In this document: positions 4,121 to 48,054 of the stretch, one piece after another
How positions within the stretch are numbered: position 1 is the first letter of the stretch
Layout: the number at the start of each line of letters is the position of its first letter
From: a virus
Taxonomy: Duplodnaviria > Caudoviricetes
DNA length: 64,000 nt
IMG/VR virus record: IMGVR_UViG_3300025389_001063
Direction: 5' to 3' (one strand)
Program-made: the position numbers and the translations under genes
The notes under the pieces: model-generated
What the model saw: only the letters and a program-made list of their open reading frames with translations
Told to the model about the DNA's origin: nothing
Database searches by the model: none

Positions 4121-4335
4121 TGGCTCTCTCCTTATGCCCTTAGTATAGCAGGGGCTGTCCAATTGTCAACCCCTGCTTGTTTACAATCAAGGCACTCTGA
4201 TAAAAGCCGCATCCCCCCTCTTATTAAAGATCACAGCCTGAGAATTCTGCAACCATGACTCCTTCTCGGCAAAAGCCTTGGCATCTTCCCAATTGTCGAA
4301 CTTTTGAGTTACCTTACCAATCTTGACTGTAAACA

Positions 4336-4806
4336 TTATTCTGACTCCTCTTCTTCCTCTTCCCACATAGCATTATTCTCACTAATAGAAAACTCCATAT
4401 CGATGTCTTCAGGAATATCCTTAGTGCCTTCATAGCAGTCGTCCTCACCATCAGTCCAACGACCACAGAAGTCCATGCCTGGCTCATAGTAGAATGCATC
4501 TACTTCAAAGTCTAACTCTACCAAATGCTCATAGAACGCCAGTGGAGGTGACCAAGCAGTCTCAAATGATAAGTTCAATTGATCAAACCTTATAGCAGCA
4601 GGACTATCGAAACCACGCTCAACATCCCACTTGGTGCCCCAGTTCTCTAGGTTCCAATTATACCAACCTTCACCCTCTAATAGCTCTGGGGGAGTAGGGA
4701 GGAAGGCTTTGAACAAGCCCTCACCATTATAACCAGCCGCCGCCTTCTCTAGCATGGCTCGGTCTTTGTGCTTAAGATAAAGTGTATTTGAACACCAATT
4801 AGGCAT
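4336..4806 (-). CDS. conserved phage protein (MPNWC..., YubB ferredoxin-like/DUF1281 type)
   Basis: MPNWCSN, WNLENWGTKWD, FETAWSPP, YYEPGMDFCG motifs. Confidence 0.7.
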   Translation of the reverse strand: MPNWCSNTLYLKHKDRAMLEKAAAGYNGEGLFKAFLPTPPELLEGEGWYNWNLENWGTKWDVERGFDSPAAIRFDQLNLSFETAWSPPLAFYEHLVELDFEVDAFYYEPGMDFCGRWTDGEDDCYEGTKDIPEDIDMEFSISENNAMWEEEEEESE

Positions 4807-4848
4807 AGCAGCCTCTCTTGTTAGAGTTTACGATTATATAATAGCACC

Positions 4849-5277
4849 TTACGCGGGTATGTCAACCAGCTCCTTATCGCTGTTGCGGCACTCCCACTTG
4901 CCGTTTACATATACATAGGAGTAATCCTGCCCGCGATCATCTGCGAGGAACTCATAGATATCTTTATATTTGTGAGCCTTTGTGCATGTCTCACCACGAT
5001 CGCGTCCATACGCTTTACACCAGTTCTCGGTGCGGGCTTCATATGCGGCACGCTCTGCTTCAGGAACTTCAAACTGGCTAAAGGCATGCTTACGACCAAT
5101 CTTTGGTCCTAGCACAGATAAGTCCCCTAGCTTTATGAGATTAACGATCTTACTAGGAGTATTATAATGGTCCCGCAAGATACGACCATTATGCTCTGGA
5201 TAACCGTCCCAGTGGCAGTAGATGCCCTTAACAAACCCGTTCTCGTCCATAACACCGATTAAGCTGCGAGTGCCCAT
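4849..5277 (-). CDS. conserved phage hypothetical protein
   Basis: MGTRSLIG...IYCHWDGYPEHNG..L..HY family motif; AGGAG RBS. Confidence 0.7.
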   Translation of the reverse strand: MGTRSLIGVMDENGFVKGIYCHWDGYPEHNGRILRDHYNTPSKIVNLIKLGDLSVLGPKIGRKHAFSQFEVPEAERAAYEARTENWCKAYGRDRGETCTKAHKYKDIYEFLADDRGQDYSYVYVNGKWECRNSDKELVDIPA

Positions 5278-5435
5278 TGTAGGCTCCTTGTTAGCGTTTA
5301 TGATATTACTATAGCACCTTAGTCTTCTCTGTCAACCAAGTCCCATAGGTTGATCAAAGCATAGGAGACGAACAAACCAATCACACTACCAATTAACACG
5401 CCTACTATAAACATCGTTGTCTCCCTTGCTTATGA

Positions 5436-5648
5436 TTATATAATAACATCATCCCGGAATCTGTCAACCTCGGCTAAGTCACTAAAATCTATAGCAGTTC
5501 CCACGAGCCAACGACGCTTGGCTTCATTGGCTGTTGACATATCCTTATAGCCCACAGCGAATGCAAACTCGTCATCCTCCCAGAAGTTAACAACCCAAAT
5601 AGCATTGCCGTCTATAGTGAAGTCTATCTCTGATTTACATTCACGCAT
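5436..5648 (-). CDS. hypothetical protein
   Basis: GGAG RBS; promoter at 5693-5698. Confidence 0.55.
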   Translation of the reverse strand: MRECKSEIDFTIDGNAIWVVNFWEDDEFAFAVGYKDMSTANEAKRRWLVGTAIDFSDLAEVDRFRDDVII

Positions 5649-5711
5649 GATATGCTCTCCTATAGTCACAATAATAGCGTCGAATTGAATTATGTCAACC
5701 GACGCTATTGA

Positions 5712-6074
5712 TTAGAACTTTAAAGGTGGAACTGATTGTGGGATGCTACCAGGCACATTCGATGGCGGTGGAGTTACTGGCTTTCCTACTGACATAACCA
5801 ACGGGCTAACAAATGGAGAAAAATTATTCCATCCCTCTCCAGAAGCCGGAAGAGTGTTGTTATCAACTGGGGTAATATCTAATATTCTTCCCTGCCACGC
5901 AGCAACAGAACTAGCAGCCTGAGCCCAATTTAAAAGAGCATCTTCTGGATTGATCTGATTACTGAATACATAACGAATGGTGATGTCATATACTGTAGCA
6001 TCTAATCCCGCAGGAACCTGTGTCATTAGATACTGATTCTCTGAGAGTAATTCTGGATTCTTTGGTTGAGCCAT
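5712..6074 (-). CDS. hypothetical Pro-rich protein
   Basis: GAGG RBS before MAQPKN. Confidence 0.6.
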   Translation of the reverse strand: MAQPKNPELLSENQYLMTQVPAGLDATVYDITIRYVFSNQINPEDALLNWAQAASSVAAWQGRILDITPVDNNTLPASGEGWNNFSPFVSPLVMSVGKPVTPPPSNVPGSIPQSVPPLKF

Positions 6075-19581: not shown

Positions 19582-19789
19582 AGCCCCACCTCATAAAGAA
19601 TAATAGTCTGTCGTTAGGGTCTTCTATTATTAAAAAGTGTGGCTCTTGTGTGACTACGACCCCGGGAAATGTTTTTATAGCTTCCCAATTCTTTACTGCC
19701 CACTGAACATCTCTAATATAGATGAGTTGTGGGACTTCTAAGTCTTCGCATGTTTCAAAGTACTTAGTACGCATGACTTTACTTATCAA
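19553..19789 (-). CDS. hypothetical protein, F/L-x-L-K-W family
   Basis: DRLLFFMRWG motif. Confidence 0.55.
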   Translation of the reverse strand: MISKVMRTKYFETCEDLEVPQLIYIRDVQWAVKNWEAIKTFPGVVVTQEPHFLIIEDPNDRLLFFMRWGCDNNNTSRV

Positions 19790-21165
19790 AAATTAGCCCT
19801 CAAACGTATTCCAAAAACATGAGCAGAATGACTTTGACTATTAAAGTTAGGATTAATAACACGTTGATAATCAGCAGTTATAGCAAGTCTATCGTTAATA
19901 GTCCATTTGTAATAAGTTTCTATAGTTTTCTGAGCAGCATATCCTGCTGATCCTGCTCCATATGGGGTAAAACTGAGATCATTATTATTGAAGATGTTAT
20001 TTCCTTTAATATGTTGTATACCAAATGCAGCACCAATCTCATCTCCGGGTCTATTCCATAACTTCCCGTCAAACACAAGACCATTACTGAATGTATGAGT
20101 AATATCAGATATTGATACAGACTTATTATCCATACCTGCTCTCATAAAATATCCAATGCCGTCTGCTAATTGTTGTTGTAGATTAACACCAATACCAAAT
20201 ACAGTTCTTCGCATTAGATCGTTAAGTTCAGTTCTATTAATTCCATTTACATAATCAATAAGACTGTTAAGACCTTGGTATCCTCCATTCTGATCTAGAT
20301 ATCCGTAATCTCTATAACCAATTAGTTTAAGACTACCGGGATTATCGAATAAATGATATCTTCTTTCTAGTTCTGATATTAACATATATTGTCTTAAGGG
20401 AACTGGATCTATATTATTACTAGGTGGTGGTAGTGATCCCTGGAATATACCTGTTCTCCAAGACCAATTATAATAATGCCAATCAAACATAGCACCAACA
20501 GTAGTACCCCAAGAATTACCAACATAGTCAACAGAGTCAAATCCAGAAAAGGATTGATTCATAAACTTTCTAGTTGGGTCGTGAGCATATATGTTACCAT
20601 CAAATATATCGCCAACAGCAAACTTACCAAATGTAAATGTTAGGGTATTTTCAGAAACTTTATCAGCAAGTTTCTGTTCAACTGAAGCAAGTGCATCACT
20701 TCGTGTGCCGCTAAAGTCTGGCATAATAGTATCTTCGCCTTCTATGTCAATTACTTGTCTAAAGAATAATCTTTGTAATTGCATATAAGGATTATTAGTG
20801 TTTACATTTGGAACTGTGGAATTAACATTGTTAGCAAAGTCTATATTGTTTGAAATGTTATAACCTTGGTATATTTCTGTATTGCTATAAACACTAGCAC
20901 CTTTCCAAAGTTTCATACCAAGATAGAAACTGCTCTTAACCATATTGTCAACTTGACCTTTATTGAAAGGATTATTTGGATCAACGTTATTTTTATAAGT
21001 TGGATAACCTTGCACAGTATCAAGCACAAGTCCGTTGATGGTTAATGTGCTAAGTGGATTAGAGTCGTCTAGTTTCCAAGGCCAATCAAATTTAGGACTG
21101 TGATCAGCCCAAGCAGGAGTAGCAGCCAAAAGGAATATTAACCCTAGAGTCTTGGATTTAACCAT
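19786..21165 (-). CDS. outer-membrane beta-barrel porin, OprB/carbohydrate-porin family, MnoP (Mn2+ porin)-like
   Basis: signal peptide; RLFFRQVI, TFGKFAVGDIFD.N.YAHDP...FMN, ETYY, ADYQ.V.NP; terminal Phe. Confidence 0.8.
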   Translation of the reverse strand: MVKSKTLGLIFLLAATPAWADHSPKFDWPWKLDDSNPLSTLTINGLVLDTVQGYPTYKNNVDPNNPFNKGQVDNMVKSSFYLGMKLWKGASVYSNTEIYQGYNISNNIDFANNVNSTVPNVNTNNPYMQLQRLFFRQVIDIEGEDTIMPDFSGTRSDALASVEQKLADKVSENTLTFTFGKFAVGDIFDGNIYAHDPTRKFMNQSFSGFDSVDYVGNSWGTTVGAMFDWHYYNWSWRTGIFQGSLPPPSNNIDPVPLRQYMLISELERRYHLFDNPGSLKLIGYRDYGYLDQNGGYQGLNSLIDYVNGINRTELNDLMRRTVFGIGVNLQQQLADGIGYFMRAGMDNKSVSISDITHTFSNGLVFDGKLWNRPGDEIGAAFGIQHIKGNNIFNNNDLSFTPYGAGSAGYAAQKTIETYYKWTINDRLAITADYQRVINPNFNSQSHSAHVFGIRLRANF

Positions 21166-36986: not shown

Positions 36987-37313
36987 ATGACCACTTGGAA
37001 TGATATTGAAAGAGTTCGCTGCTTAGATGAACTTTGTGAGAAGTTGGGCTTCACATATCAACCCGATGGGTATGGCACCAGTCATATCTTGCTTAATGCT
37101 ACCGATGAGTTAGTTGTCTATGCTAAACACATAAGTCTCTATCGTGGTAATGTAGAAGATATGATTAACTTCCTTAAAGGTTGGGAGCAGGCACATCTGT
37201 ATCTCAATATTCTAGGTGCTATTAATGAAAAGAGGATCGAACGGTCAAAGTTAGACTATCGCAATAAGCATTTGGTTAAAATCATTAAAGGAAAAGATGA
37301 CATACTCTGTTGA
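36987..37313 (+). CDS. hypothetical protein
   Basis: AGGAG RBS before MTTWND. Confidence 0.6.
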   Translation: MTTWNDIERVRCLDELCEKLGFTYQPDGYGTSHILLNATDELVVYAKHISLYRGNVEDMINFLKGWEQAHLYLNILGAINEKRIERSKLDYRNKHLVKIIKGKDDILC

Positions 37314-37545
37314 AGTAGAACATTACGATAAACAACTTGGTAAATGTCTTAACTATCTACGACTAAATGGAAAGAATCCACAACCAGCAATATCAGGTTT
37401 ATCATATTATGATAAATTAATCTCACAGATGGAACAGGAAATGGATATTAAAGTTCATTGGTTAGATGGCGAGGCTCGTGTTTGGTATAAATTAGAATTT
37501 GAAAATGAAAATAAATTCTTATTATGGTTGATGAGGTTCTCATGA
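37297..37545 (+). CDS. hypothetical protein, F/L-x-L-K-W family
   Basis: FENENKFLLWLMRFS. Confidence 0.55.
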   Translation: MTYSVEVEHYDKQLGKCLNYLRLNGKNPQPAISGLSYYDKLISQMEQEMDIKVHWLDGEARVWYKLEFENENKFLLWLMRFS

Positions 37546-37760
37546 ATTCTCCGCAGACTAAGTATCTCTGGCACGATGGTGCTAAAAGATATTACATTAA
37601 AGATCCCGTTGACGGCGGTCGCGTCTTGAGAAATGATTCACGAGACAAAATCTTTGCGTGGTGTAAGCAACATTGTAATGGTGATTACTGGATTGGCATG
37701 GGCTTTGGCATGTTTGAATTAGATAGCGATGCTGCTCTATTTTTGTTGAGGTGGTCGTGA
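37542..37760 (+). CDS. hypothetical protein, F/L-x-L-K-W family
   Basis: FELDSDAALFLLRWS. Confidence 0.6.
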   Translation: MNSPQTKYLWHDGAKRYYIKDPVDGGRVLRNDSRDKIFAWCKQHCNGDYWIGMGFGMFELDSDAALFLLRWS

Positions 37761-38264
37761 TTAGTCGTTGTAACCTTTAGAAACTTTACGCTGACCTTTG
37801 TATGCCTTCATTCCTTTAATAGGTATATTCAATTTACCAGCAAGTTCAATAATGCTTGGTGGTATCTTATCTTGTGGAATATCTGGATTAATTTCAATAT
37901 GACTTATGAAAGGTTGTTTGAGAGGAATCGGAACTAGAACTTCTTCTTCCTTTTCTGGATCCTTACCTTTAGGAGTGCCTTTATAATAAGGGGACCAACC
38001 AAATAGTTGTACTTTTATACCTGCTCTTCTTAGGGCATCACGATCTATAGCAAATTGAGCAGCACCTTCATAATTTGGGAAGCGATAGAATTGATCGCGA
38101 GTTAGACTAATAACAGGATTAGTTCTACCCATCTCAGAACCATGTGTGGCTACACGAGGGAGGATCTTACCACTTTGTAAGATCTTTTCTAATATAGAAA
38201 AACTGTATACACTGTGGTATAAGAGGTTGGCTCCAACGGCTTCGACGAGTTCTGAAATCTTCAT
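37761..38264 (-). CDS. late hypothetical protein (possibly virion-associated)
   Basis: MKISELVE N-terminus; LYH...ISLTRD...EEEV; TAAATA 5 nt upstream. Confidence 0.6.
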   Translation of the reverse strand: MKISELVEAVGANLLYHSVYSFSILEKILQSGKILPRVATHGSEMGRTNPVISLTRDQFYRFPNYEGAAQFAIDRDALRRAGIKVQLFGWSPYYKGTPKGKDPEKEEEVLVPIPLKQPFISHIEINPDIPQDKIPPSIIELAGKLNIPIKGMKAYKGQRKVSKGYND

Positions 38265-38272
38265 ACTATTAT

Positions 38273-38557
38273 TTACAGGATTACGTCTATGATTACGTCC
38301 TTAACTACTTCTTCTGCGATCTCGACGCCTTCTTTCTCTAACTCTGCTTCAACTTCTTTAATAAGTTTTTTACTCTTTTTCTTTAATCTACAAAATCCAC
38401 GCACTACTGATTCAAATAGTGGTTTTGCTACAGTTGGTGCTACTACTGAAGCAACACCTACAACTATGCCTGGAAGAAGTGCTGCTTCTACAACGGCTGC
38501 TCCAACTGCTATTACTGCTACCGAAGTAACTGTTGACTGAATATGTTCTTGCTTCAT
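38273..38557 (-). CDS. DUF5132-like small membrane protein
   Basis: GAAVVEAALLPGIVVGVA..VAP...PLF.S.VRG; GGAG RBS before MKQEH. Confidence 0.5.
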   Translation of the reverse strand: MKQEHIQSTVTSVAVIAVGAAVVEAALLPGIVVGVASVVAPTVAKPLFESVVRGFCRLKKKSKKLIKEVEAELEKEGVEIAEEVVKDVIIDVIL

Positions 38558-38630
38558 TTCGATTCTCCACGTATATTTAACAAGAAATAACCCGCTATAT
38601 CTTAAAATACCAGTTAATAAATAGAAGAAC

Positions 38631-39374
38631 ATGACACAGAGAAACAGAAAAGAATATAGATCAATCTTTATCTCAGATGTACATTTAGGTACAAAATACG
38701 CCAACGCCGAATTACTCCTAGAATTTCTAAAAGATACAAGAGCCGAAAGATACTATCTAATCGGTGATATTATTGATGGTTGGTCTATGAAGAAGAAAGT
38801 GTACTGGCCACAAGCACATAATAACATAGTACAATACTTTCTAAAACTATCCAAAAACGATCACAAGGTTTTTTACATAACAGGTAATCACGATGAGTTC
38901 TTAAGAGAATACGGTGGAACCACAATGGGAAATATTCATCTTGTAAATGAATGTATCCATCACGGTGAGAATGGAAAAAGATATCTAGTTATCCATGGTG
39001 ACCAATTTGATCTTGTTACCACTAACGCTAAATGGTTAGTTCATATCGGCAGTTGGGCATATGATTGTATGATTGAACTTAATACAAAATTACAATGGCT
39101 TTATAGAACTTTGGATATTAAAGGTTTCTCATTAAGTGCTTGGGCAAAGCATAGTGTTAAAGAAGCAGTAAACTTTATTGGTGATTACGAAGATGTTGTT
39201 TCAGACTATGCTGCTAAAAAATGTGTTGACGGAGTTATATGTGGTCACATACATTTTTGTAATATCAAAGAGATGAACGGCATACAATATATGAATACAG
39301 GTGACTGGGTAGAATCATGTACTGCTATAGTTGAACATCACAATGGAAAGTTTGAGTTGTTGAGGTTCTTATGA
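38631..39374 (+). CDS. plcP: PlcP-type metallophosphoesterase (LpxH2/phospholipase C family)
   Basis: YRSIFISDVHLG, GDIIDGW, GNHDE (His rather than the LpxH Arg), IHGD.FD, CGHIH, N.GDWVES; adjacent to GT4. Confidence 0.75.
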   Translation: MTQRNRKEYRSIFISDVHLGTKYANAELLLEFLKDTRAERYYLIGDIIDGWSMKKKVYWPQAHNNIVQYFLKLSKNDHKVFYITGNHDEFLREYGGTTMGNIHLVNECIHHGENGKRYLVIHGDQFDLVTTNAKWLVHIGSWAYDCMIELNTKLQWLYRTLDIKGFSLSAWAKHSVKEAVNFIGDYEDVVSDYAAKKCVDGVICGHIHFCNIKEMNGIQYMNTGDWVESCTAIVEHHNGKFELLRFL

Positions 39375-40087
39375 GTAATTTAGAAAAAAATTATCGCAAG
39401 ATTTATGAAAATCATCATGGTTCTATCCCAAAAGGCTATCATATTCATCACAAGGATGGAAATCATCTAAACAATCATATAGATAACTTACAATGCGTAT
39501 CAGTACAAGATCATTTTAATATTCATTTCTCTCAAGGAGACTGGGGTGCTTGTTATGCTTTATTCAAAACAGGGCATATGACATTAACTCCAGAGCAGAG
39601 ATCAGATATTGCTAGTCGCCGCGAAAAGAAAAAAGTAGAAGATAAAGAACATATTTTTCTTAATCCAGAATTTGTTGCTATGGTTGCCGAAATAAATAGC
39701 AAAAGATTACAAGAATTAGCAAAAGAAGGTAAACATCCGGCACAATTAGAAAAAAATAGAAAAAAGTTATCCGAAAGAAATTCAAAAACACAAAGCGACT
39801 TATCTAAAAAAGGAAAACACGTTTTCCAAAAAAAGGAACATCGTGAAAAACTTTCTAAAATAGTTAGCGAATCTAATAAAAGACGAGCAACTGGAACTAA
39901 CTGGTGGAATAATGGACAGAAAAATAAACAATCAAAGGAATGTCCAGGCAATGGTTGGACCATTGGGAGGTTAGAGGTTAGTGGCTCTAAAGGATTCAAA
40001 TGGTGGAATAATGGAATTAATAATGTTTTTACAAAAACTTTCCCAGGCAATGACTGGGTATCAGGAAGAATAAAAGAGGATAAATGA
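39371..40087 (+). mobile_element. free-standing HNH homing endonuclease with two WWNNG repeats
   Basis: HIHHKDGNHLNNHIDNL...H...H; inserted between plcP and the GT4 gene with 4-nt overlaps. Confidence 0.85.
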
Positions 40088-41091
40088 TGAAAATTGTTAT
40101 TTTTTCAGATGCTTCGAGTAAGAATCAAATAAATGGCGTAAAATATACAATTGAACAAACTAAAAAATGTCTTGAATTAAGAGGTTATACTGTTACAATA
40201 ATTGGACCAGATGACTATAAGGTTACAGTTCCTCTTCAACCTTCAACTGGTATCTATATGCCAATATTTCCTCTTGGTCTTGTTGAAGATGCACTCGAGG
40301 ACGCAGATTATATTCATATAGCGACGGAGGGATCAATTGGACTTGCTGCCAGATACGCCTGTAAAAAACAAAAAAAGAAATATACTACAAGTTTTCATAC
40401 TAAATTTCCAGACTACCTTTATGAACATGCTTATATTCCACCCAGAGTTACTGGTCGGTATTTTCGTTGGTTTCATCGAAACAGCAGTTCTGTTCTCGTT
40501 ACAAACGCCGCCATGGTTAACTATTGTTCTAAACTGGGCATCAAACACCTAACAATCTGGTCAAGGGGTGTTGATACAAATCTATTCAAACCAGATCCTA
40601 ATTTTAAGAGACAAGGATCTGCTATTCGTGCTGTCTACGTTGGTAGAGTTAGTGCCGAAAAGAATCTAGAAGCATTTCTCAAAATAGAAAATCCTAATAT
40701 CATAAAATATGTCATTGGTGACGGACCACAATTAGATTCCTATAAAGTATTATATCCTGATGCTTTTTTTCTTGGTAAGAAGACACATGAAGAAATTGCT
40801 AAATTATTACAAACAATGGATGTCTTTGCTTGGCCTTCGCTAACGGATACATTTGGACTTGTTGTATTGGAGGCTATGGCTTGTGGATTACCTGTTGCTG
40901 GATTCGATAATGAAGTTAATCGTTACCTTATTGAAGATGGTATTTCTGGATCATTAATGAAATTTGATCTTGAAGAAGGTATATTAGCATCTTTTCAATG
41001 CTTGAAGAAAGAAGATGCTATCGCTCGTGCCCAAAAGTTTTCCTGGGACGCAGCAACAGATCAATTTGTTGACAATCTAGTTAAGTCTTGA
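40084..41091 (+). CDS. GT4 glycosyltransferase, Agt/MGDG-glucuronosyl-DAG synthase-like
   Basis: QINGV, IHIATEG.IG, TTSFHTKFP.Y, WSRGVD..LF, YVGRVS.EKN, VGDGP-like, PS.TDTFGLV.LEAMACGLPV. Confidence 0.85.
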   Translation: MMKIVIFSDASSKNQINGVKYTIEQTKKCLELRGYTVTIIGPDDYKVTVPLQPSTGIYMPIFPLGLVEDALEDADYIHIATEGSIGLAARYACKKQKKKYTTSFHTKFPDYLYEHAYIPPRVTGRYFRWFHRNSSSVLVTNAAMVNYCSKLGIKHLTIWSRGVDTNLFKPDPNFKRQGSAIRAVYVGRVSAEKNLEAFLKIENPNIIKYVIGDGPQLDSYKVLYPDAFFLGKKTHEEIAKLLQTMDVFAWPSLTDTFGLVVLEAMACGLPVAGFDNEVNRYLIEDGISGSLMKFDLEEGILASFQCLKKEDAIARAQKFSWDAATDQFVDNLVKS

Positions 41092-41121
41092 CATAGTTCT
41101 TAAAGGTGTTATTATAACACT

Positions 41122-41751
41122 ATGAGATATCAGTTTCCAAAGATTGAGCATATTAACGATGTGCTACCCGCTATTCAGGACTCTCCCGAATTTATTGTGG
41201 CGGAGCGTGAATACTTCACTGTGATTAACTATTTGGTTTCACATCCGGAGACCTTTCCCGAAGTGGACGAATCTCCCGAATTAGAATATGATCTGATCGC
41301 AAAGCGTAACGCTATCCGTCGTGAATGCCGCGGACTTATCTTCTGTAAGACTACCGGTAAGATACTTCGGAGACCGTTTTCCAAATTCTTTAATATTGGA
41401 GAGCGAGACGAAACCCAACTTCATTTGTTAGACTTCACTGGTTCGCACGAGGTCTTTACCAAGGAAGACGGTTCTATGGTAACTCCATTTGAAGTTGGTT
41501 TTGGTTCCGGTGTAATCCGTTGGGCGACAAAGATGGGATTATCGGATGTGGCTCTGAACGCAGAAGTGTTTGTGGCAGAAAATCCAAAGTATCAAGAGTT
41601 TGCCAAATGGTGTATTGCCAATCGGCTAACTCCTATATTTGAATGGGTAAGCCGCAAGAATAGAATTGTTCTCGACTATCCCGAGGATAATCTTATTCTT
41701 CTTGCTGTTCGGCATATGGAGACGGGAGAATATCTTCCTTTGAAGGTATAG
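41122..41751 (+). CDS. rnlA: T4 Rnl1-like RNA ligase, N-terminal fragment
   Basis: ECRGLIF, KFFNIGE, motif I KEDGS, TPIFEW, LILLAVR; ends in TAG at 41749-41751. Confidence 0.85.
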   Translation: MRYQFPKIEHINDVLPAIQDSPEFIVAEREYFTVINYLVSHPETFPEVDESPELEYDLIAKRNAIRRECRGLIFCKTTGKILRRPFSKFFNIGERDETQLHLLDFTGSHEVFTKEDGSMVTPFEVGFGSGVIRWATKMGLSDVALNAEVFVAENPKYQEFAKWCIANRLTPIFEWVSRKNRIVLDYPEDNLILLAVRHMETGEYLPLKV

Positions 41752-42451
41752 ATCCTAAATACTTCTCTATTGATGCTAAAGACAAACAGGTTCTTCTTTT
41801 GATTAACTCTTTGTTTTTAGCATCATTAAATGTTTCTTCAGTAAGTTTATCATAATGTATATAAAACTTTTGTAAGAACTTAATACATCTACCTTTTATA
41901 AGATTTTTCTTTCGGTCCTCATTAAACTTTATACCTGTTTGACCTAATGAAATTTTGCGGCGATCTTCCTCTGTTCTTTTAGATCCTTTCCATAAGGACC
42001 GCAATTTAGAACGAGTTTCTTCGGAAACAATTCTACCTGTATTTCTTATTATTAGTGCTTCACGGACATGCTCAGGTCGAGGTTTTCCCTTATAACGATC
42101 TTTAGCCATACTCGCATGTTCTTCTTTAATTGCTGTATATAATTTTGAATTAAGTTTTGTAGGCCATCTATTACTCGTTGACATTCTTTTATACGCACAT
42201 AACATTCTATATTTCGGATCACCGATAACCATTCTTGTTAATAATAGATGACAAATATAATGTTCTCTACAAGTAAGAAGAACGAGATTATCTTTAGAAT
42301 TACTTCCTCCTAAAGATTTTGGAAAAATATGATGAGATTCTAAAGTGCCATCGAACTTTTTGGATCTATTTTCGGATTTGGCTTTCTCAATAATGGCAAG
42401 ATACCAATTTGTATATTTGTTTGTGAGAAAATATGTGCTATAAATATTCAT
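41693..42451 (-). mobile_element. HNH/NUMOD3 homing endonuclease inserted antisense into the RNA ligase gene
   Basis: NKYT.WY..II; HHIFPKSLGG.N..DNLV.LT.REH..CH.LL; NUMOD3-like repeats. Confidence 0.88.
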
Positions 42452-42518
42452 GCTGTTGCTCCTATAAAGCGATAGAGTAGTTGGGAACGCCAATTCCGTG
42501 AACTACACTCTTATTTAT
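42452..42518 (-). repeat. conserved structured 5' leader of HNH gene, copy 1
   Basis: 55/67 identical to 53452-53518; TAAATA, hairpin, RBS. Confidence 0.85.
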
Positions 42519-42576
42519 TCTCCTAACAGGTTGACTGCTTTAGATATGATGCTATTATACATTATAGGAGATTGTC

Positions 42577-43239
42577 ATGGACTTAATCAATCAACTTTTG
42601 GAACGCATTAAAACTTTGGACATCCCTGTTGTGGCAACACACGACCCTGTTGTTGATCCAAAGGCTTTTATGGATTATGTCCGCGACCTTAAGGATGCTG
42701 AAGGATTTGTTATTGCGTGGCCTTCCGGATACCGCGTAAAAACTAAAGCAGCAGATTACCTCCGCCTCCATAAAGTTAAGGACTCGCTCAGTCAGGAAAA
42801 GAATGTTATCGAAATGCTTATTAGCGAATCAATCGATGACGCTAAACCTTTCATGAGTGCCGAAGATCGTAAGAGAGTAGAGGAGTTTGAAGATGGATTT
42901 TGGCAGAATGTTGAATATTCTGCTAAAGAGTTTGAATCTTACTTTAATAGATTATCTATTGATCGTAAGACTTGGTCTCTAGAACATATGAAAGATATGA
43001 ACGCGAAGAATCCATTTTCTTCAAACATTGTGTTCAACTTGTACAATGGTAAAAGTGCTCTCGATACAATCATTGAGATCATTACTAAAAACTTATCAAC
43101 TCAAACTCAAGTAGATAAAGTCCGCTGCCTTTGGGGTGGACTTTATTGGAATTATTCCTTTGGTGAAGAACAACAAAAAGTTGCCTCTGGCTTCTTTGGC
43201 AAGTGGGCTGAACATAAACATGTGGAGCAATTACAATGA
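42577..43239 (+). CDS. rnlA: T4 Rnl1-like RNA ligase, C-terminal fragment
   Basis: motif IV EGFVI, motif V RVKTK..Y...H; own promoter TTGACT 42531 / TATTAT 42553 and GGAG RBS. Confidence 0.8.
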   Translation: MDLINQLLERIKTLDIPVVATHDPVVDPKAFMDYVRDLKDAEGFVIAWPSGYRVKTKAADYLRLHKVKDSLSQEKNVIEMLISESIDDAKPFMSAEDRKRVEEFEDGFWQNVEYSAKEFESYFNRLSIDRKTWSLEHMKDMNAKNPFSSNIVFNLYNGKSALDTIIEIITKNLSTQTQVDKVRCLWGGLYWNYSFGEEQQKVASGFFGKWAEHKHVEQLQ

Positions 43240-43253
43240 TGAAGGAGAATAGA

Positions 43254-43670
43254 ATGCGTAAGATACTTTTAACAACTGCTGTTATCGCAGCACTTGCTAT
43301 TCCTGCTGCAACACCTGCCGATGCTTGGTGGCGAGGTGGTGGTTGGGGTTATGGCGGCGGCTGGGGCGGCTACGGAATGGGTTACGGTGGTTGGGGTTAC
43401 GGAGGCTATGGAATGGGGATGATGGGCGCTGCTGCTGGTGGAGCATTACTTGGTGGTATCGTTGGTGGTGCTATTGCTGCTCAAGCTGCTCGTCCAGTTT
43501 ATGCTGCTCCTGCTCCAGTTTATGCTGCTCCTGCTCCGGTAGTAGTTGAACAACCTGCAACAGTAGTAGTTGAACAACCTGCCCCTGTAGTTGTTGTAAA
43601 ACGTAGATGTCAAATTATGCAAGAATGGGATGCATTAGAAGGCTATGTTTACAAAAAGGTATGTCTATGA
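43254..43670 (+). CDS. secreted Gly/Pro-rich protein with glycine zipper and Cys pair (Rhizobiales-type)
   Basis: signal peptide; GWGYGG repeats; GALLGGIVGGAIA; PVYAAPA x2; C...WD...GYV...C. Confidence 0.75.
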   Translation: MRKILLTTAVIAALAIPAATPADAWWRGGGWGYGGGWGGYGMGYGGWGYGGYGMGMMGAAAGGALLGGIVGGAIAAQAARPVYAAPAPVYAAPAPVVVEQPATVVVEQPAPVVVVKRRCQIMQEWDALEGYVYKKVCL

Positions 43671-43764
43671 TTACTGATATAATTTATGGAATGATATATC
43701 TAGGTGAGATTGTAGCAGTCTTCACTGTTATAATCTCAATCTACTCAATCTTTAAGGGAAACAA

Positions 43765-43908
43765 ATGAGTGCATGGCTTATAGCAGTAACGGGAACAATC
43801 TATGCCGTAGTGGCAATTGAACAATTTTTAAAAGGCAATATGTCTATGACTATAGTTTATAGTGGATATGCCTTTAGCAATATTGGACTTTATCTTCTGG
43901 CTAAGTAG
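43765..43908 (+). CDS. small conserved membrane protein (47 aa, not in track)
   Basis: MSAWLIAVTGTIYAVVAIEQF.KG...Y.GYAFSNIGL. Confidence 0.6.
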   Translation: MSAWLIAVTGTIYAVVAIEQFLKGNMSMTIVYSGYAFSNIGLYLLAK

Positions 43909-43956
43909 TTGACACAGTTATTACAAGTGTTATTATATACTACAGGAGACAGACAG

Positions 43957-44397
43957 ATGACTAAGGTAATTGTGTTCGATATTGACGGAACATTAGCCGA
44001 TATGGAACACCGTAGACAATGGTTTGACGGTGGAAAAAAGAACTGGAATGCGTTCTTTGCTGCTCAGCATTTGGATCCAACACACGAAGATATTGTTTGG
44101 ATGCTGAATCAGTTTCACCAGAGTGGTAATACAATTCTTATCTGTACTGGACGTAACGAAGGACACAGAGAAATATCTGAAGAGTGGTTAACAAAGAACA
44201 ACATCGAGTACGATAAGATGTATATGCGTCCACTTAACGATTTCCGTCAAGATGGCGTTGTTAAAGTTGATCTGTTAGCAAAAATCCGAGAAGAATACGG
44301 TGAACCTTGGTTGTGGATTGATGATCGCAAACAGGTTGTGGATGCTATTCGTGCTGAAGGAGTTCGTGTTCTTCAAGTTTGTGAGGGCGATTATTAA
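43957..44397 (+). CDS. HAD-family polynucleotide 3'-phosphatase (PNKP phosphatase domain)
   Basis: DIDGTLAD, ICTGR, MR...D.R.D..VK, IDDRKQVV. Confidence 0.85.
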   Translation: MTKVIVFDIDGTLADMEHRRQWFDGGKKNWNAFFAAQHLDPTHEDIVWMLNQFHQSGNTILICTGRNEGHREISEEWLTKNNIEYDKMYMRPLNDFRQDGVVKVDLLAKIREEYGEPWLWIDDRKQVVDAIRAEGVRVLQVCEGDY

Positions 44398-44430
44398 AGT
44401 AGCATATATAGAACTTGTCAGGAGAAAACT

Positions 44431-44796
44431 ATGAACAAGTTCTTAATTGCTGCCTTAATCGCCTTTACACCATATAATGCCTTTGCTAAATCTGTAGTAG
44501 AAAAAGAATTCAAACCAGATCCAGGATGTGTTACTAAGGAAGTAGCAGATAATGTTATTAATAATGGTGGTTATGAACTTCTTGTTAGAGGTATAGATCC
44601 TCAAAAGAAGATTATAGAGTTTTGGTTCAGTGGTGCTAAACAAATGGTTATGCTCACATACGAACTACCTAAGGATGCTAAACCAGAATCAATAAAGCAA
44701 GTCTGCGTTGTAGGTTATGGTGAAAACATAGTGTTTAATGGAGATACAGTAGATCTTCTAAAGAAGGCCCTAGATAAAGTAAGCCCAAAGACATAA
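44431..44796 (+). CDS. secreted protein
   Basis: signal peptide; Cys pair; AGGAG RBS. Confidence 0.6.
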   Translation: MNKFLIAALIAFTPYNAFAKSVVEKEFKPDPGCVTKEVADNVINNGGYELLVRGIDPQKKIIEFWFSGAKQMVMLTYELPKDAKPESIKQVCVVGYGENIVFNGDTVDLLKKALDKVSPKT

Positions 44797-44839
44797 GTAT
44801 ATTTGGTTTCCTATTTGGACTTCTACACATGGAGGAATC

Positions 44840-45064
44840 ATGTTAAATCCTAACGTCGGTGAATACTCATTGGCTACTGATCCAATGAAATATAATTTGA
44901 GATTTGCGTTTGTTTACGAAAATAATACAATTGGTCTTAGAAAAAATAACTTATCACAAAGACATAACGAACTAACTGAAGAAGAACGAAAAGAACTTTC
45001 TAATTTAATAATTATAGAAGATTACCTCCAAAAAAGAATAAAAGAATTAAAAGAAATAACATGA
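44840..45064 (+). CDS. hypothetical protein
   Basis: GGAGG RBS. Confidence 0.55.
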   Translation: MLNPNVGEYSLATDPMKYNLRFAFVYENNTIGLRKNNLSQRHNELTEEERKELSNLIIIEDYLQKRIKELKEIT

Positions 45065-45282
45065 GTGAAGAATGGTTATATCAGGCAACTAGTACTCAAG
45101 CCGAATTAGATATTGCTCGTAGAAAAATAGAACTCCTCGAGCAATTCTATCGTAATATTGTTGAATTAACAATTAATCATGACTTTATAGAAAGTAAAGA
45201 CGGACACGACTATGCAAGTGTTAGTCCTCAAAAATTAGGGGACTTACTTGCAAAGGTTGATCCTGAATGGTTTAAACACTAA
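45061..45282 (+). CDS. hypothetical protein
   Basis: coupled ORF. Confidence 0.55.
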   Translation: MSEEWLYQATSTQAELDIARRKIELLEQFYRNIVELTINHDFIESKDGHDYASVSPQKLGDLLAKVDPEWFKH

Positions 45283-45320
45283 TATAATTTGCTTCATTGC
45301 GCCGGTTAAATATCCTTACC

Positions 45321-45902
45321 ATGAATACACACATACTTGCAATCCACGGTGCTTATAGTTCACCATTTATTTTTAACTACTTACAAAAGCAGTTACCAAA
45401 GTCTTACAAGTGGCAATTCTTTGATTACAGAGATAATCCAGAAGGACATATGGGTCCACTTATTGATCAACTACAAAAGTGTATGGTCAACGAGTGCCAC
45501 GTAATTGGACATTCGATGGGAGGACTACTTTCTCTTTGGTTAGGTGAAAATCTAGCAGTAAAATCAATAACAACAATAGCAACACCACTAGATGGATTAG
45601 ATGTAAATTTATTACAATCAATGATGACCCGCAGTCCATTTATTAAAGAAATGGCACATGGTAGCAAGTTTATAAAATTCATACACAATCAATCATTCCT
45701 AATGCCAGTTCAACATATAGTTTCAACTAAAGGTTATAATCCATATATCTATGAAGAAAGCGATGGCGTTGTAACTATGCGTTCACAGCGTGGATGGAAT
45801 ATTGGCGAGATTCACGACATTCCTGCTAACCATGCCGAAATTATGATGCATGAAGATACTGTAAAGTTGGTAAAGACCTTTATTGACACAAACAACGAAT
45901 AA
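45321..45902 (+). CDS. alpha/beta hydrolase
   Basis: IHGA, VIGHSMGG (GxSxG), TIATP, SDGVV, NH. Confidence 0.85.
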   Translation: MNTHILAIHGAYSSPFIFNYLQKQLPKSYKWQFFDYRDNPEGHMGPLIDQLQKCMVNECHVIGHSMGGLLSLWLGENLAVKSITTIATPLDGLDVNLLQSMMTRSPFIKEMAHGSKFIKFIHNQSFLMPVQHIVSTKGYNPYIYEESDGVVTMRSQRGWNIGEIHDIPANHAEIMMHEDTVKLVKTFIDTNNE

Positions 45903-45916
45903 TACTATAATGTATT

Positions 45917-46477
45917 ATGATCATTAAAGAACGTGATGTAATGGTGGACATCGAAACACTTGCCACCGGTCCAAACGCTGTCATCCTTACAATTGGTGCT
46001 TTAAGATTTGACCCATATGGAGATGATCGTGATCGCAATGTTAAAAACATGCCTCATTTTTATTGTCGGGTTGATCCTGAAAGTTTTGATTATCCAGAGG
46101 CTGAAATCAACAATGAAACCTTAGCATGGTGGAGTAAACAACCTCCTGAAATACAACACGAAGCATTTGGTGAAGGTGTTGAACGTTTACCTATCAAAGA
46201 AGCATTAACACAATTCTTTGATTTTTGTAGACCACTAGATAGAATTTGGGCAAATGGTCCTGCCTTTGATATTATTATTTTAGAAACTGCTGCTAAACAT
46301 GCCGGAGTGCCTGTACCTTGGAATTTCTGGCAGGCTCGAGATTGTAGAACCGTATTTCGCTTAAATCCACAAAGAGATCAAAAATCAAATAACCATAATG
46401 CCTTAGACGATTGCTGGGTACAGACCTATAAATTACAGCAATGTTTAAAGGCATTAAATGTAACAAAGATGGACTAA
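45917..46477 (+). CDS. DEDDh 3'-5' exonuclease (DUF5051/Rv2179c-like)
   Basis: MVDIETL.T...ILTIGA, WANG..FD, PW..W..RD.RT, HNALDD. Confidence 0.85.
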   Translation: MIIKERDVMVDIETLATGPNAVILTIGALRFDPYGDDRDRNVKNMPHFYCRVDPESFDYPEAEINNETLAWWSKQPPEIQHEAFGEGVERLPIKEALTQFFDFCRPLDRIWANGPAFDIIILETAAKHAGVPVPWNFWQARDCRTVFRLNPQRDQKSNNHNALDDCWVQTYKLQQCLKALNVTKMD

Positions 46478-46494
46478 ATATCTAAGAGGAGCCT

Positions 46495-46677
46495 ATGGAA
46501 ACCTTTGAATTAAATGAGAATCACCAATTAGTAATATGTTTAATAATGCTTTGTAAAATGACAAAACATACTGACCCAGCGGCATATGCACAATACAAAG
46601 CACATTTAAAACTATTAGAAGAAGCAATGATGAAGGAATTTGACGATGAGAATGTGGGAAATACACGCTGCCATTAA
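46495..46677 (+). CDS. hypothetical protein
   Basis: TAAATA and AGGAG RBS. Confidence 0.5.
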   Translation: METFELNENHQLVICLIMLCKMTKHTDPAAYAQYKAHLKLLEEAMMKEFDDENVGNTRCH

Positions 46678-46855
46678 GCAAGCAGGAAACCAAAGAATCG
46701 TCAATATTCAAGTTCAAGCACCAAATCAAATTGTGGCTAAAGAATTAGCCAAGGCCCAATACGCCGGCTCAGATGTAGTTTTAAGAGGTACTCCTAGAGA
46801 AGTTAAACCTCTTAAAACAAATCAAAAAAACGATCCTCGACAATTTAAAAAATAA
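46646..46855 (+). CDS. conserved small phage protein
   Basis: V.VQA.N...AK.LA.AQY pattern. Confidence 0.55.
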   Translation: MRMWEIHAAIKQAGNQRIVNIQVQAPNQIVAKELAKAQYAGSDVVLRGTPREVKPLKTNQKNDPRQFKK

Positions 46856-46863
46856 ATTAATAT

Positions 46864-47253
46864 ATGATTGGTTGGATTATTCTCTCATTTGCTATCGGCA
46901 TGGCTGTTGGCATGTATCTATTAATATCAGACTATTGGTTGAACGTTGTCTTAGTTCTTGACTACGTGTATGAAAAGATAGTATTATTTTCTAAGAGATG
47001 GAGAAAGAGTATGTCTTTTAAACAAATCTATGGTGACGATCAAATTTATGTTTCTACAAATGATATATATGGTGGACAAGAATTAAGAATTACTATGAAT
47101 TCCATATCTAAAGAAAATCTAAATTGGTTACAGAATTTTAGAATGGAACACGAAAAAGAAAAGAAACTTCGTGAAGAAAATATCGCAGTAAAGAATGCCT
47201 GGGAACAATATCAAGTTGTTAAAACATTAGCACAAAAGGAAACAGTGGGATGA
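46864..47253 (+). CDS. membrane-anchored hypothetical protein
   Basis: N-terminal TM; AVK.AWEQYQ.V..L. Confidence 0.55.
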   Translation: MIGWIILSFAIGMAVGMYLLISDYWLNVVLVLDYVYEKIVLFSKRWRKSMSFKQIYGDDQIYVSTNDIYGGQELRITMNSISKENLNWLQNFRMEHEKEKKLREENIAVKNAWEQYQVVKTLAQKETVG

Positions 47254-47489
47254 GTGAAAGACTCTTTGATAAGTTTATCGAATCTCTAGAAGAACTTATT
47301 GATACACAAGACGATATGTGGGAAGAAGAGAAACATGAGAATGTTCATGCTCGCCGTAAAATATATGAGGAAAGATTTATTCCAGCAAGAGACAAATTAA
47401 AAAGAACACTAGATGATTATATCGATGAAAGAATATTAAAAGGTCTTCAGAAACACGGAGTAAGAAGAACTTATACCAATCCTGAATAA
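47250..47489 (+). CDS. hypothetical protein
   Basis: coupled ORF. Confidence 0.55.
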   Translation: MSERLFDKFIESLEELIDTQDDMWEEEKHENVHARRKIYEERFIPARDKLKRTLDDYIDERILKGLQKHGVRRTYTNPE

Positions 47490-47538
47490 CCTTTTTTATA
47501 ATCTGGATATATAATGATGTCAACATTAGGATCCAGAC

Positions 47539-47937
47539 ATGAAGAAGATTTTAATAGCAATAGCACTTTTAATTTCAACTCCAGTATACGCAACACAGAT
47601 TGTAGTAGATAAAAGAACACAAACAATGTATGTAGATAGTCCAGAAGGAACATTTACATGGAAAGTATCGACAGCAAGGAAAGGTTATAGGACACCAAGT
47701 GGAACTTTTTATCCTTATTCGCTCCAGCCTATGCATTATAGTAAAAAGTATGATAATGCTCCCATGCCTCACAGTATCTTTTTTAATGGCGGTTATGCTA
47801 TACATGCTACTCCTCATGTGGGTGCTTTGGGTCGGCCTGCTAGTCATGGTTGCGTACGTCTATCACCTGCTAATGCCCGGACGCTATACGGAATAGTAAA
47901 GCGTGATATAGGTTACACAACAATCCATATACAATAG
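47539..47937 (+). CDS. L,D-transpeptidase (YkuD family, Rhizobiales short type)
   Basis: signal peptide; VSTARKG..TP.G; MH.SKKYDNAPMPHSIFF.GG.AIHAT...LG.PASHGCVRL. Confidence 0.93.
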   Translation: MKKILIAIALLISTPVYATQIVVDKRTQTMYVDSPEGTFTWKVSTARKGYRTPSGTFYPYSLQPMHYSKKYDNAPMPHSIFFNGGYAIHATPHVGALGRPASHGCVRLSPANARTLYGIVKRDIGYTTIHIQ

Positions 47938-47978
47938 GTTGACACTGTTCATTAAGTAAAGTAATATAAGAACATGAT

Positions 47979-48054
47979 GGGGGATTAGCTCAGTTGGGAG
48001 AGCGACTGATTTGCATTCAGTAGGTCATCGGTTCGATCCCGGTATCCTCCACCA
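47979..48054 (+). tRNA. trnA: tRNA-Ala(TGC)
   Basis: cloverleaf, G3:U70 pair, loop TT-TGC-AT, encoded CCA. Confidence 0.95.

Follow-up and report, generated by a model that had tools for sequence, protein, structure and literature searches.

What use would a bacteriophage have for an enzyme that cleaves membrane phospholipids and for a second enzyme that sets sugars on the diacylglycerol left behind? The question is raised by a block of genes at positions 38631-41091 of a 64,000-nucleotide stretch of viral DNA (IMG/VR record IMGVR_UViG_3300025389_001063; the full stretch is called the window here, and all positions are counted along it). The block consists of three intact, overlapping open reading frames (ORFs) on the plus strand, which encode a metallophosphoesterase (MPE), an HNH endonuclease and a glycosyltransferase (GT). 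The MPE gene (38631-39374, +; 247 aa; Pfam Metallophos, 4e-11) is plcP-like, its product being an LpxH-like phosphoesterase of the PlcP (phospholipase C) family, and the GT gene (40087-41091, +; 334 aa, or 335 aa if the alternative ATG at 40084 is used) is agt-like, its product being a retaining GT4 enzyme of the GT-B type and of the Agt/GTcp group (Pfam Glyco_transf_4 and Glycos_transf_1, 1e-16 to 1e-19). An earlier note, made from the letters of this DNA, had described both ORFs as intact and had pointed to the GNHD motif of the first and to the ATEG, TTSFHTKFP and WSRGVD motifs of the second; the ORFs are indeed intact at these coordinates, and all four motifs are found in the translations (GNHD as part of 'YITGNHDEF'). 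On the evidence set out below, the block is probably a viral plcP-agt auxiliary module, one that would convert host phospholipid to diacylglycerol and onward to glycolipid, thereby freeing membrane phosphorus for the phage.

The phosphoesterase and the glycosyltransferase

Homologues of the phage MPE bear the name 'LpxH' in the annotation of the Joint Genome Institute (JGI), and those of the GT are named 'glycosyltransferase involved in cell wall biosynthesis'. A placement of the phage MPE in the PlcP family and not with LpxH, which the earlier note had favored, is nonetheless well supported by sequence comparison. On the two NCBIfam equivalog models for LpxH, the phage protein scores 50.5 and 43.8 bits, where the cut-offs stand at 134 and 190. 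A similar result is obtained with the bacterial members of the family, in that the pair-linked MPE of five beta- and gammaproteobacterial genomes scores 27-44 bits on the LpxH model, like the phage protein, and each of these genomes holds a separate LpxH gene scoring 189-262 bits (four of them pass the cut-off, at 205-262, and the fifth scores 189). In genomes with both genes, the two are distinct paralogues. Across 74 aligned sequences, the histidine of the GNHD motif (His87), upon which the earlier note had relied to tell PlcP from LpxH, is invariant in 16 phage or metagenome and 53 bacterial PlcP-like proteins (69 of 69) and is replaced by arginine in all five LpxH sequences, the motif of the Escherichia coli LpxH being GNRD. 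Two further positions discriminate between the families, namely Asp49 (Glu in LpxH) and the additional Asp127 (a gap in LpxH). The metal-binding motifs DxH, GD, GNHD, H and GHxH are all present in the phage protein, with D16, H18, D46, N86, H87, H122, H206 and H208 invariant across the phage and bacterial members, and the binuclear metal site is probably occupied by Mn2+.

Phylogeny separates the two families in the same manner. In an IQ-TREE analysis (LG+C20) for which relatives from Agrobacterium, Rhizobium and Burkholderia served as PlcP references, and from which the homologue of Synechococcus phage S-SRM01 was left out, LpxH and the PlcP-like proteins are split with support of 100/100 across a very long branch. 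The window's MPE lies inside the PlcP clade, within a group of 15 phage or metagenome sequences (support 100/99) that is placed among the PlcP proteins of the Hyphomicrobiales and adjoins those of Agrobacterium, Rhizobium and Bradyrhizobium. No Pelagibacter record was present among the 80 loci kept from a scan led by the protein of the Pelagibacter phage Mosig.

The likeness to LpxH is one of architecture. Both families have a calcineurin-like core with a helical lipid-binding insertion, and the ligands of a binuclear metal site are common to both, but sequence identity between them is only about 20%. The AlphaFold2 model of the phage MPE, with a predicted local distance difference test (pLDDT) score of 88, shows such an LpxH-like core, the helical insertion lying at approximately residues 123-196, and its best match among solved structures is LpxH, at a template-modelling (TM) score of about 0.57 and 20% identity; to our knowledge, neither a PlcP nor an Agt structure has been solved. 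A phmmer search of the PDB with the MPE gave no match, and PHROGs holds no dedicated family for it, the matches there being weak, partial and to generic phosphoesterases.

The sequence of the second enzyme points clearly to the Agt/GTcp family of GT4 glycosyltransferases, in agreement with the earlier note, which had called it Agt-like. GTcp of SAR11 (334 aa) employs a dyad of His104 and Asp256, the latter in place of the usual Glu, and loses more than 90% of its activity upon the substitution D256E; it carries the motifs GRVAxEKN and FPSxTDTFG together with a Gly-rich motif, and Gly16, Gly82, Gly85, Arg163, Arg190, Lys195, Thr257, Phe258, Gly259, Glu264 and Trp320 are essential as well (PMC8231724). 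The phage GT has the corresponding motifs GRVSAEKN and WPSLTDTFG and keeps an equivalent of every one of these residues (G17, G82, G85, H104, R160, R187, K192, D254, T255, F256, G257, E262 and W320). The great majority of the essential residues do not vary among the 21 viral and 52 bacterial relatives compared, with a few substitutions at R160, D254 and F256. The dyad Asp (D254) is present in all 21 viral and in 50 of the 52 bacterial relatives, and is Glu in an unrelated phage GT4 that deviates at most of the positions essential in GTcp. Arg163 and Trp320 of GTcp have been implicated in the binding of diacylglycerol (PMC8231724); by equivalence drawn from motif offsets, without a direct GTcp alignment, their counterparts are R160, which is Arg in 19 of 21 viral and 48 of 52 bacterial relatives, and W320, which is invariant in all of them.

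In each of two Agrobacterium tumefaciens genomes, exactly one protein matches the phage GT below 1e-10, over its full length and at 35-36% identity. The AlphaFold2 model (pLDDT 92) has the GT-B fold, with MshA, BshA and PimA as top PDB matches, and among reviewed proteins the structures closest to it include plant SQD2 and two alpha-monoglucosyl-diacylglycerol synthases, from Acholeplasma and Streptococcus pneumoniae. Relative to a sister contig (L353), plcP has a ratio of nonsynonymous to synonymous substitution rates (dN/dS) of 0.08 and agt one of 0.27, and both genes are under purifying selection.

The gene pair in bacteria and in phages

The earlier note had taken plcP and agt to be co-transcribed, and the logic of an operon is borne out by bacterial genomes. 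About two thirds of 242 bacterial loci have the GT gene adjacent to the MPE gene and after it (52 of 82, 54 of 80 and 58 of 80 loci in three sets of named genomes, sampled independently); at nine other bacterial loci, BtaA, a betaine-lipid synthase that uses diacylglycerol, takes the place of the GT 3' of the MPE. The pair loci of the Burkholderia cepacia complex match the plcP-agt-dagK operon, which makes glycolipids under phosphate limitation (PMC13691135). Judged by its sequences, the phage pairing is that of the bacterial plcP-agt operon. When it is set beside the operons of S. meliloti (SMc00171), Phaeobacter MED193, SAR11 HTCC7211 (PlcP + GTcp), P. aeruginosa (PA3219-PA3218) and B. cenocepacia (BCAL2364-BCAL2365), the same two families are found in the same order, plcP then agt, usually in tight linkage and with the same catalytic residues. 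Against its bacterial counterparts, the phage PlcP shows 44-55% identity and the phage Agt 35-43%, which is similar to the range among the characterised proteins themselves (46-47% for PlcPs and 35-41% for Agts; PMC8528852). What sets the phage version apart is its carriage by a virus, an overlap of 4 bases between the genes where the bacterial spacing is approximately 45-450 bases, the absence of a Pho box and of dagK, the splitting of the pair by an HNH gene in the window, and a GT that belongs to a long-branched clade of its own. A related arrangement is the PlcP-BtaA/BtaB cluster, in which the same PlcP supplies the diacylglycerol and the partner is a diacylglyceryl-trimethylhomoserine (DGTS) synthase rather than a glycosyltransferase. 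The bacterial PlcP that was found first as the closest to the phage protein (L011, 54% identity) stands in such a cluster, and BtaA was found in none of the best 80 viral loci.

Relatives of the MPE are present on at least 580 IMG/VR contigs. An Agt-like GT gene lies directly 3' of the MPE gene in 54 of the best 80 loci, as it also does in L007-L010, L185-L188 and L353. Where the MPE is a close relative (at least 68% identity) and the contig is long enough, the GT is present in 28 cases out of 28, directly in 27 and after an HNH gene in L296. The pair is kept across phage lineages at identities of 50-98% and in genomes of 146 to 351 kb. It also survives partner exchange, as is observed in L187, where the PlcP belongs to the window's clade and the GT falls elsewhere in the Agt tree.

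The genes found beside the pair vary, and several have a connection to phosphate. Among 63 non-redundant viral loci, PhoH is encoded immediately upstream in seven, and it is found there in L007-L010 as well; in relatives of 146-174 kb, phoH, plcP and agt are contiguous. Other upstream neighbours in the same 63 loci are a phosphate-selective porin (one locus), a UDP-glucose dehydrogenase (one locus), T4 RegA, a clamp-loader subunit and NrdB. Downstream, some relatives have plcP and agt followed by an intact RNA ligase gene (419 aa), which is the gene order of the window. Two cultured phages, Mosig and S-SRM01, encode MPE homologues without an adjacent Agt. In the Pelagibacter phage Mosig EXVC030M (L183, 93031-94866) the homologue is 44% identical, is annotated 'UDP-2,3-diacylglucosamine hydrolase' (LpxH), and is encoded divergently beside a gene for a PstS-family phosphate-binding protein (PBP_like_2, 2e-44). 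It branches elsewhere in the PlcP tree than the window's clade, which implies more than one acquisition of the gene by phages. The homologue of S-SRM01 is 36% identical, is likewise annotated LpxH, and occupies a very long branch near LpxH in a FastTree analysis, which makes it a doubtful member of the PlcP family.

Other neighbourhoods were noted in passing. In L185 and L186 (2257-5800), genes for CsgF, CsgG and a curlin-repeat protein are situated just 5' of the pair, and a CHASE2-guanylate cyclase gene 3' of it; curli genes are reportedly a trait of pelagimyophages. Three putatively viral contigs of about 13 kb (L344, L345 and L346) encode, some 190 bases 3' of the MPE, a 237-aa GT2 with a weak GT21 match instead of a GT4, and this protein may be a non-orthologous partner. 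The closest IMG/VR relative, L273, has a full-length acyl-CoA dehydrogenase gene directly 5' of plcP (4165-5820), which, alongside the lipid genes, is a hint that this phage catabolises fatty acids.

The HNH insertion and the surrounding genome

In the window, plcP and agt are parted by a free-standing HNH_3 homing-endonuclease gene (39371-40087, +; 238 aa; Pfam HNH_3, 4e-14), whose PHROG match is 'intron-like DNA endonuclease' (7e-19). The earlier note had described the two lipid genes as separated only by an HNH gene. This gene is an interloper, the junction being empty in the sister contig L353 and in 54 of the 55 pair-bearing IMG/VR loci; the same site is occupied only in L296, by a gene 67% identical. 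In L353, the plcP of which has 95.8% DNA identity to that of the window, agt overlaps plcP directly. The ATGA that starts agt in L353 is the one at which the HNH gene starts in the window, and the end of the HNH gene provides a new ATGA overlap with agt, with the result that both the MPE/HNH and the HNH/GT junctions are 4-base ATGA overlaps. By its sequence, the HNH gene is a rare and precise homing-endonuclease insertion at the plcP/agt junction, for which homing is predicted, and the arrangement is best explained by an insertion that would leave translational coupling intact. DNA identity to L353 is 93-96% to the left of the insertion (up to the end of plcP) and 72-84% to its right (from agt onward), and a breakpoint in identity at the HNH site fits either recombination or co-conversion. 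Over window positions 37297-48000, the place of the window's split RNA ligase is taken in L353 by a tryptophan halogenase gene, the breakpoint being again the HNH insertion site. In four other contigs (L314, L315, L316 and L331), SegE-type GIY-YIG or HNH endonuclease genes lie just 3' of the PlcP-like gene, and it seems that homing endonucleases have repeatedly inserted at the 3' end of this gene.

The block is preceded by a divergent intergenic region of 73 bp (38558-38630), read from the sequence as the presumed promoter region of plcP, in which the promoter scan reported no sigma-70-like site. It is bounded at its 3' end by a strong promoter-like site (41088-41115, +; TTGACA-16-TATTAT with TG, 11/12) ahead of the split RNA ligase gene. 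A scan for promoters and terminators on the plus strand inside the block found no strong promoter-like site (at least 10/12) and no terminator-like site, and from this layout it is plausible that the genes are co-transcribed. Independent assemblies from at least five samples contain an identical GT protein preceded by the HNH gene, the longest contig being 351,300 bp, and the arrangement is therefore not an artefact of assembly.

The window is phage DNA, and the pair is truly carried by a phage. Its contents include six tRNA genes, NrdAB, an ATP-dependent DNA ligase, a T4-type RNA ligase 1, a PNKP-type phosphatase, several homing endonucleases and many small ORFs. The nearest relatives of its NrdA (58-62% identity) are those of Stenotrophomonas phage DLP_6 (168 kb) and of the Rak2/121Q/GAP32 jumbo phages. 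All five of the long pair-carrying IMG/VR records tested encode the T4 Gp23 major capsid protein, one of these being a 338 kb record with terminal repeats and another a 162 kb record that is 98% complete. An uncultured T4-like jumbo myophage of about 351 kb is the best explanation for the carrier. The DNA of the block was matched by none of 50,697 phage records, and the GT protein has no close relative among phage isolates.

An OprB-family porin of 459 aa (19786-21165, -; Pfam 9e-34), for which no match was found in the same 50,697 phage records, is encoded 17 kb from the pair and on the opposite strand. The earlier note had joined a MnoP-like porin to the two enzymes in a self-contained system. 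The porin is a genuine member of the OprB family, but none of the five other pair-carrying phage records in which it was sought encodes it, two of these records being at least 98% complete, and for this reason we do not count it in the system.

Elsewhere in the window, the T4-type RNA ligase 1 gene 3' of the block is split (41122-43239) into an N-terminal piece matching RNA_lig_T4_1 (41122-41751) and a C-terminal piece matching T4_Rnl1_C (42577-43239), with a 266-aa ORF on the minus strand between them (41693-42493); in L187 and L188 a single, intact RNA ligase of 419 aa is encoded directly 3' of agt. A gene at 43236-43670 (+) encodes a protein of 144 aa with a signal-peptide-like start, a repeat region rich in Gly, Trp and Tyr (GGWGYGGGWGGYGMGYGG) and PAPV repeats; its Pfam matches, to cuticle and chorion proteins, are weak. 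At 27486-33013 (-) there are four overlapping ORFs, three of which are radical SAM genes, confirmed through their counterparts in L001; one of these has a B12-binding domain and another a faint SPASM match.

Proposed function, its rivals and its meaning

During infection, the PlcP-like enzyme would cleave the phosphatidylethanolamine, phosphatidylglycerol and phosphatidylcholine of the host to diacylglycerol and a phosphorylated head group. The Agt-like GT4 would then move glucose or glucuronate from a UDP-sugar onto the diacylglycerol, and the phosphorus-free glycolipids so formed would keep the bilayer intact. Membrane phosphorus released to the cytoplasm would feed the synthesis of phage nucleotides, and its release would continue, or pre-empt, the phosphate-starvation response of the host once host expression has been shut down. 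What we infer in this scheme is which substrates and metal are used, when the genes are expressed and that phosphorus is gained. A harvest of phosphate for a large genome is plausible in the context of the phoH, pstS and phosphate porin genes that stand beside the gene in other phages. The pstS, phoA and phoH genes of marine phages are comparable, being likewise host-derived genes that would raise the supply of phosphorus in infection. There is, however, a difference in the source that is drawn upon, as pstS and phoA act on the uptake or scavenging of external phosphate (the function of phoH is unknown), whereas the module would mobilise, and put a substitute in place of, an internal pool, the host's own membrane.

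Several points weigh against a module of this kind. The phage copies are known from sequence alone. PlcP yields phosphorylated head groups and not free phosphate, such that a phosphatase step is required, and none was identified within the module. The MPE occurs without a GT4 in 23 of the best 80 viral loci, which makes the pairing common but not obligatory. In the alignments, the characterised proteins SMc00171, PA3219, GTcp and Atu2297 are represented by congeners and relatives. In a quick tree rooted on a single, very distant GT4, the window's viral GT clade (13 rows, support 100) attaches by a long branch basal to the bacterial Agt clade and not inside it, and given this position a shift in acceptor or donor specificity is possible. 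Lastly, Pho-type regulation is not supported, as a Pho-box search found neither a Pho box nor another phosphate-responsive signal near plcP or agt; the window's two Pho-box-like matches are weak, lie elsewhere and are fewer than chance would give. The lack of a Pho box does not disqualify the enzyme family, for which regulation in a phage may differ.

Other explanations of the pair must be weighed against the same evidence. The pair might alter the cell envelope, bringing about superinfection exclusion or the masking of receptors through the presentation of outer-membrane proteins or lipopolysaccharide (LPS), by which competing phages would be kept from adsorbing or from injecting their DNA, with any gain in phosphorus incidental. 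According to a review, PlcP-dependent remodelling in Pseudomonas aeruginosa affects how much of certain membrane proteins is present and, according to unpublished data cited there, how efficiently phage adsorb (PMC9804370), and the glycosyltransferases of pelagimyophages have been read as surface-modifying (PMC7029224). An envelope role calls for the same enzymology as the phosphorus module, and for that reason the sequence evidence cannot separate the two; we nevertheless regard it as unlikely, given that the neighbours which recur are phoH, pstS and the phosphate porin and not genes of exclusion or receptors, and that remodelling acts mainly upon glycerophospholipids of the inner membrane and inner leaflets, an indirect route to the masking of a receptor. 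Somewhat less likely again is that the products serve needs other than phosphorus, such as the stabilisation or expansion of the membrane of an enlarged cell, the timing of lysis, or the catabolism of fatty acids for energy. The acyl-CoA dehydrogenase gene of L273, a class-3 lipase at one locus and the several viral loci with the MPE alone would suit such needs, but phosphate-related neighbours are more frequent, and the conserved pairing with a GT that consumes diacylglycerol argues that the diacylglycerol is re-used in the membrane and not burned.

That the MPE is an LpxH after all and the GT an LPS or cell-wall glycosyltransferase, by which the phage would modify the synthesis of lipid A or LPS, is the reading implied by the annotations of JGI, Mosig and S-SRM01, and it has in its favor that LpxH is the nearest solved fold; a viral metatranscriptome of Lake Baikal likewise counts lpxH as an auxiliary metabolic gene (PMC9611531). 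We consider it very improbable in view of the wide failure of both equivalog cut-offs, the His in place of Arg, the 100/100 split in the tree, the separate, true LpxH kept by pair-bearing bacteria, and the Agt/GTcp-specific residues of the GT. It is hardly credible, either, that plcP and agt are decaying passengers devoid of function. The HNH gene between them and the variation of flanking genes among close relatives could be taken in that sense, but the ORFs are intact, the catalytic residues complete, the dN/dS values low at 0.08 and 0.27, and the pair is kept across lineages. A module that remodels host lipid for its phosphorus is, in our estimation, the probable role of the block.

Our literature search returned no description of a phage-encoded PlcP-Agt pair, many subscription papers being outside its reach, and this agrees with the earlier note's impression that the pair had not been characterised in a phage. 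The genome announcement of Mosig does not discuss the MPE gene. A survey of pelagimyophages treats phage glycosyltransferases as modifiers of the O-antigen and mentions no phospholipase (PMC7029224).

Phage particles are rich in DNA, and phosphorus often limits the production of phage on that account. The known answers of phages to this limitation (pstS, phoA) make use of external phosphate, and a viral PlcP-Agt pair would add a second, internal source of phosphorus. By a rough estimate, a small rod-shaped cell has several million phospholipids, the phosphorus of which is of the same order as that of its chromosome and is equal to that of about ten copies of a 351-kb phage genome. A cultured system is at hand in the pelagiphage Mosig, which has the PlcP only, beside pstS, and the phage genes, if active, would offer structural biologists compact and diverged forms of PlcP and Agt.

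The genes are frequent in viral metagenomes and, being mislabelled as LPS genes, are miscounted in surveys of auxiliary genes. It may be, with a likelihood somewhat short of even, that they make up a large and so far unrecognised class that goes under the label 'LpxH', by which T4-like and jumbo phages of freshwater and marine bacteria strip phosphorus from the membrane of the host and refill it with glycolipid. In that case infection, alongside nutrient stress, would drive the shifts from phospholipid to glycolipid that serve in the field to indicate phosphorus limitation, and the module would supply a measurable share of the phosphorus spent on phage DNA. Were the pair active, lipid-based measures of phosphorus stress, in lakes as in oceans, would in part be a signal of infection.

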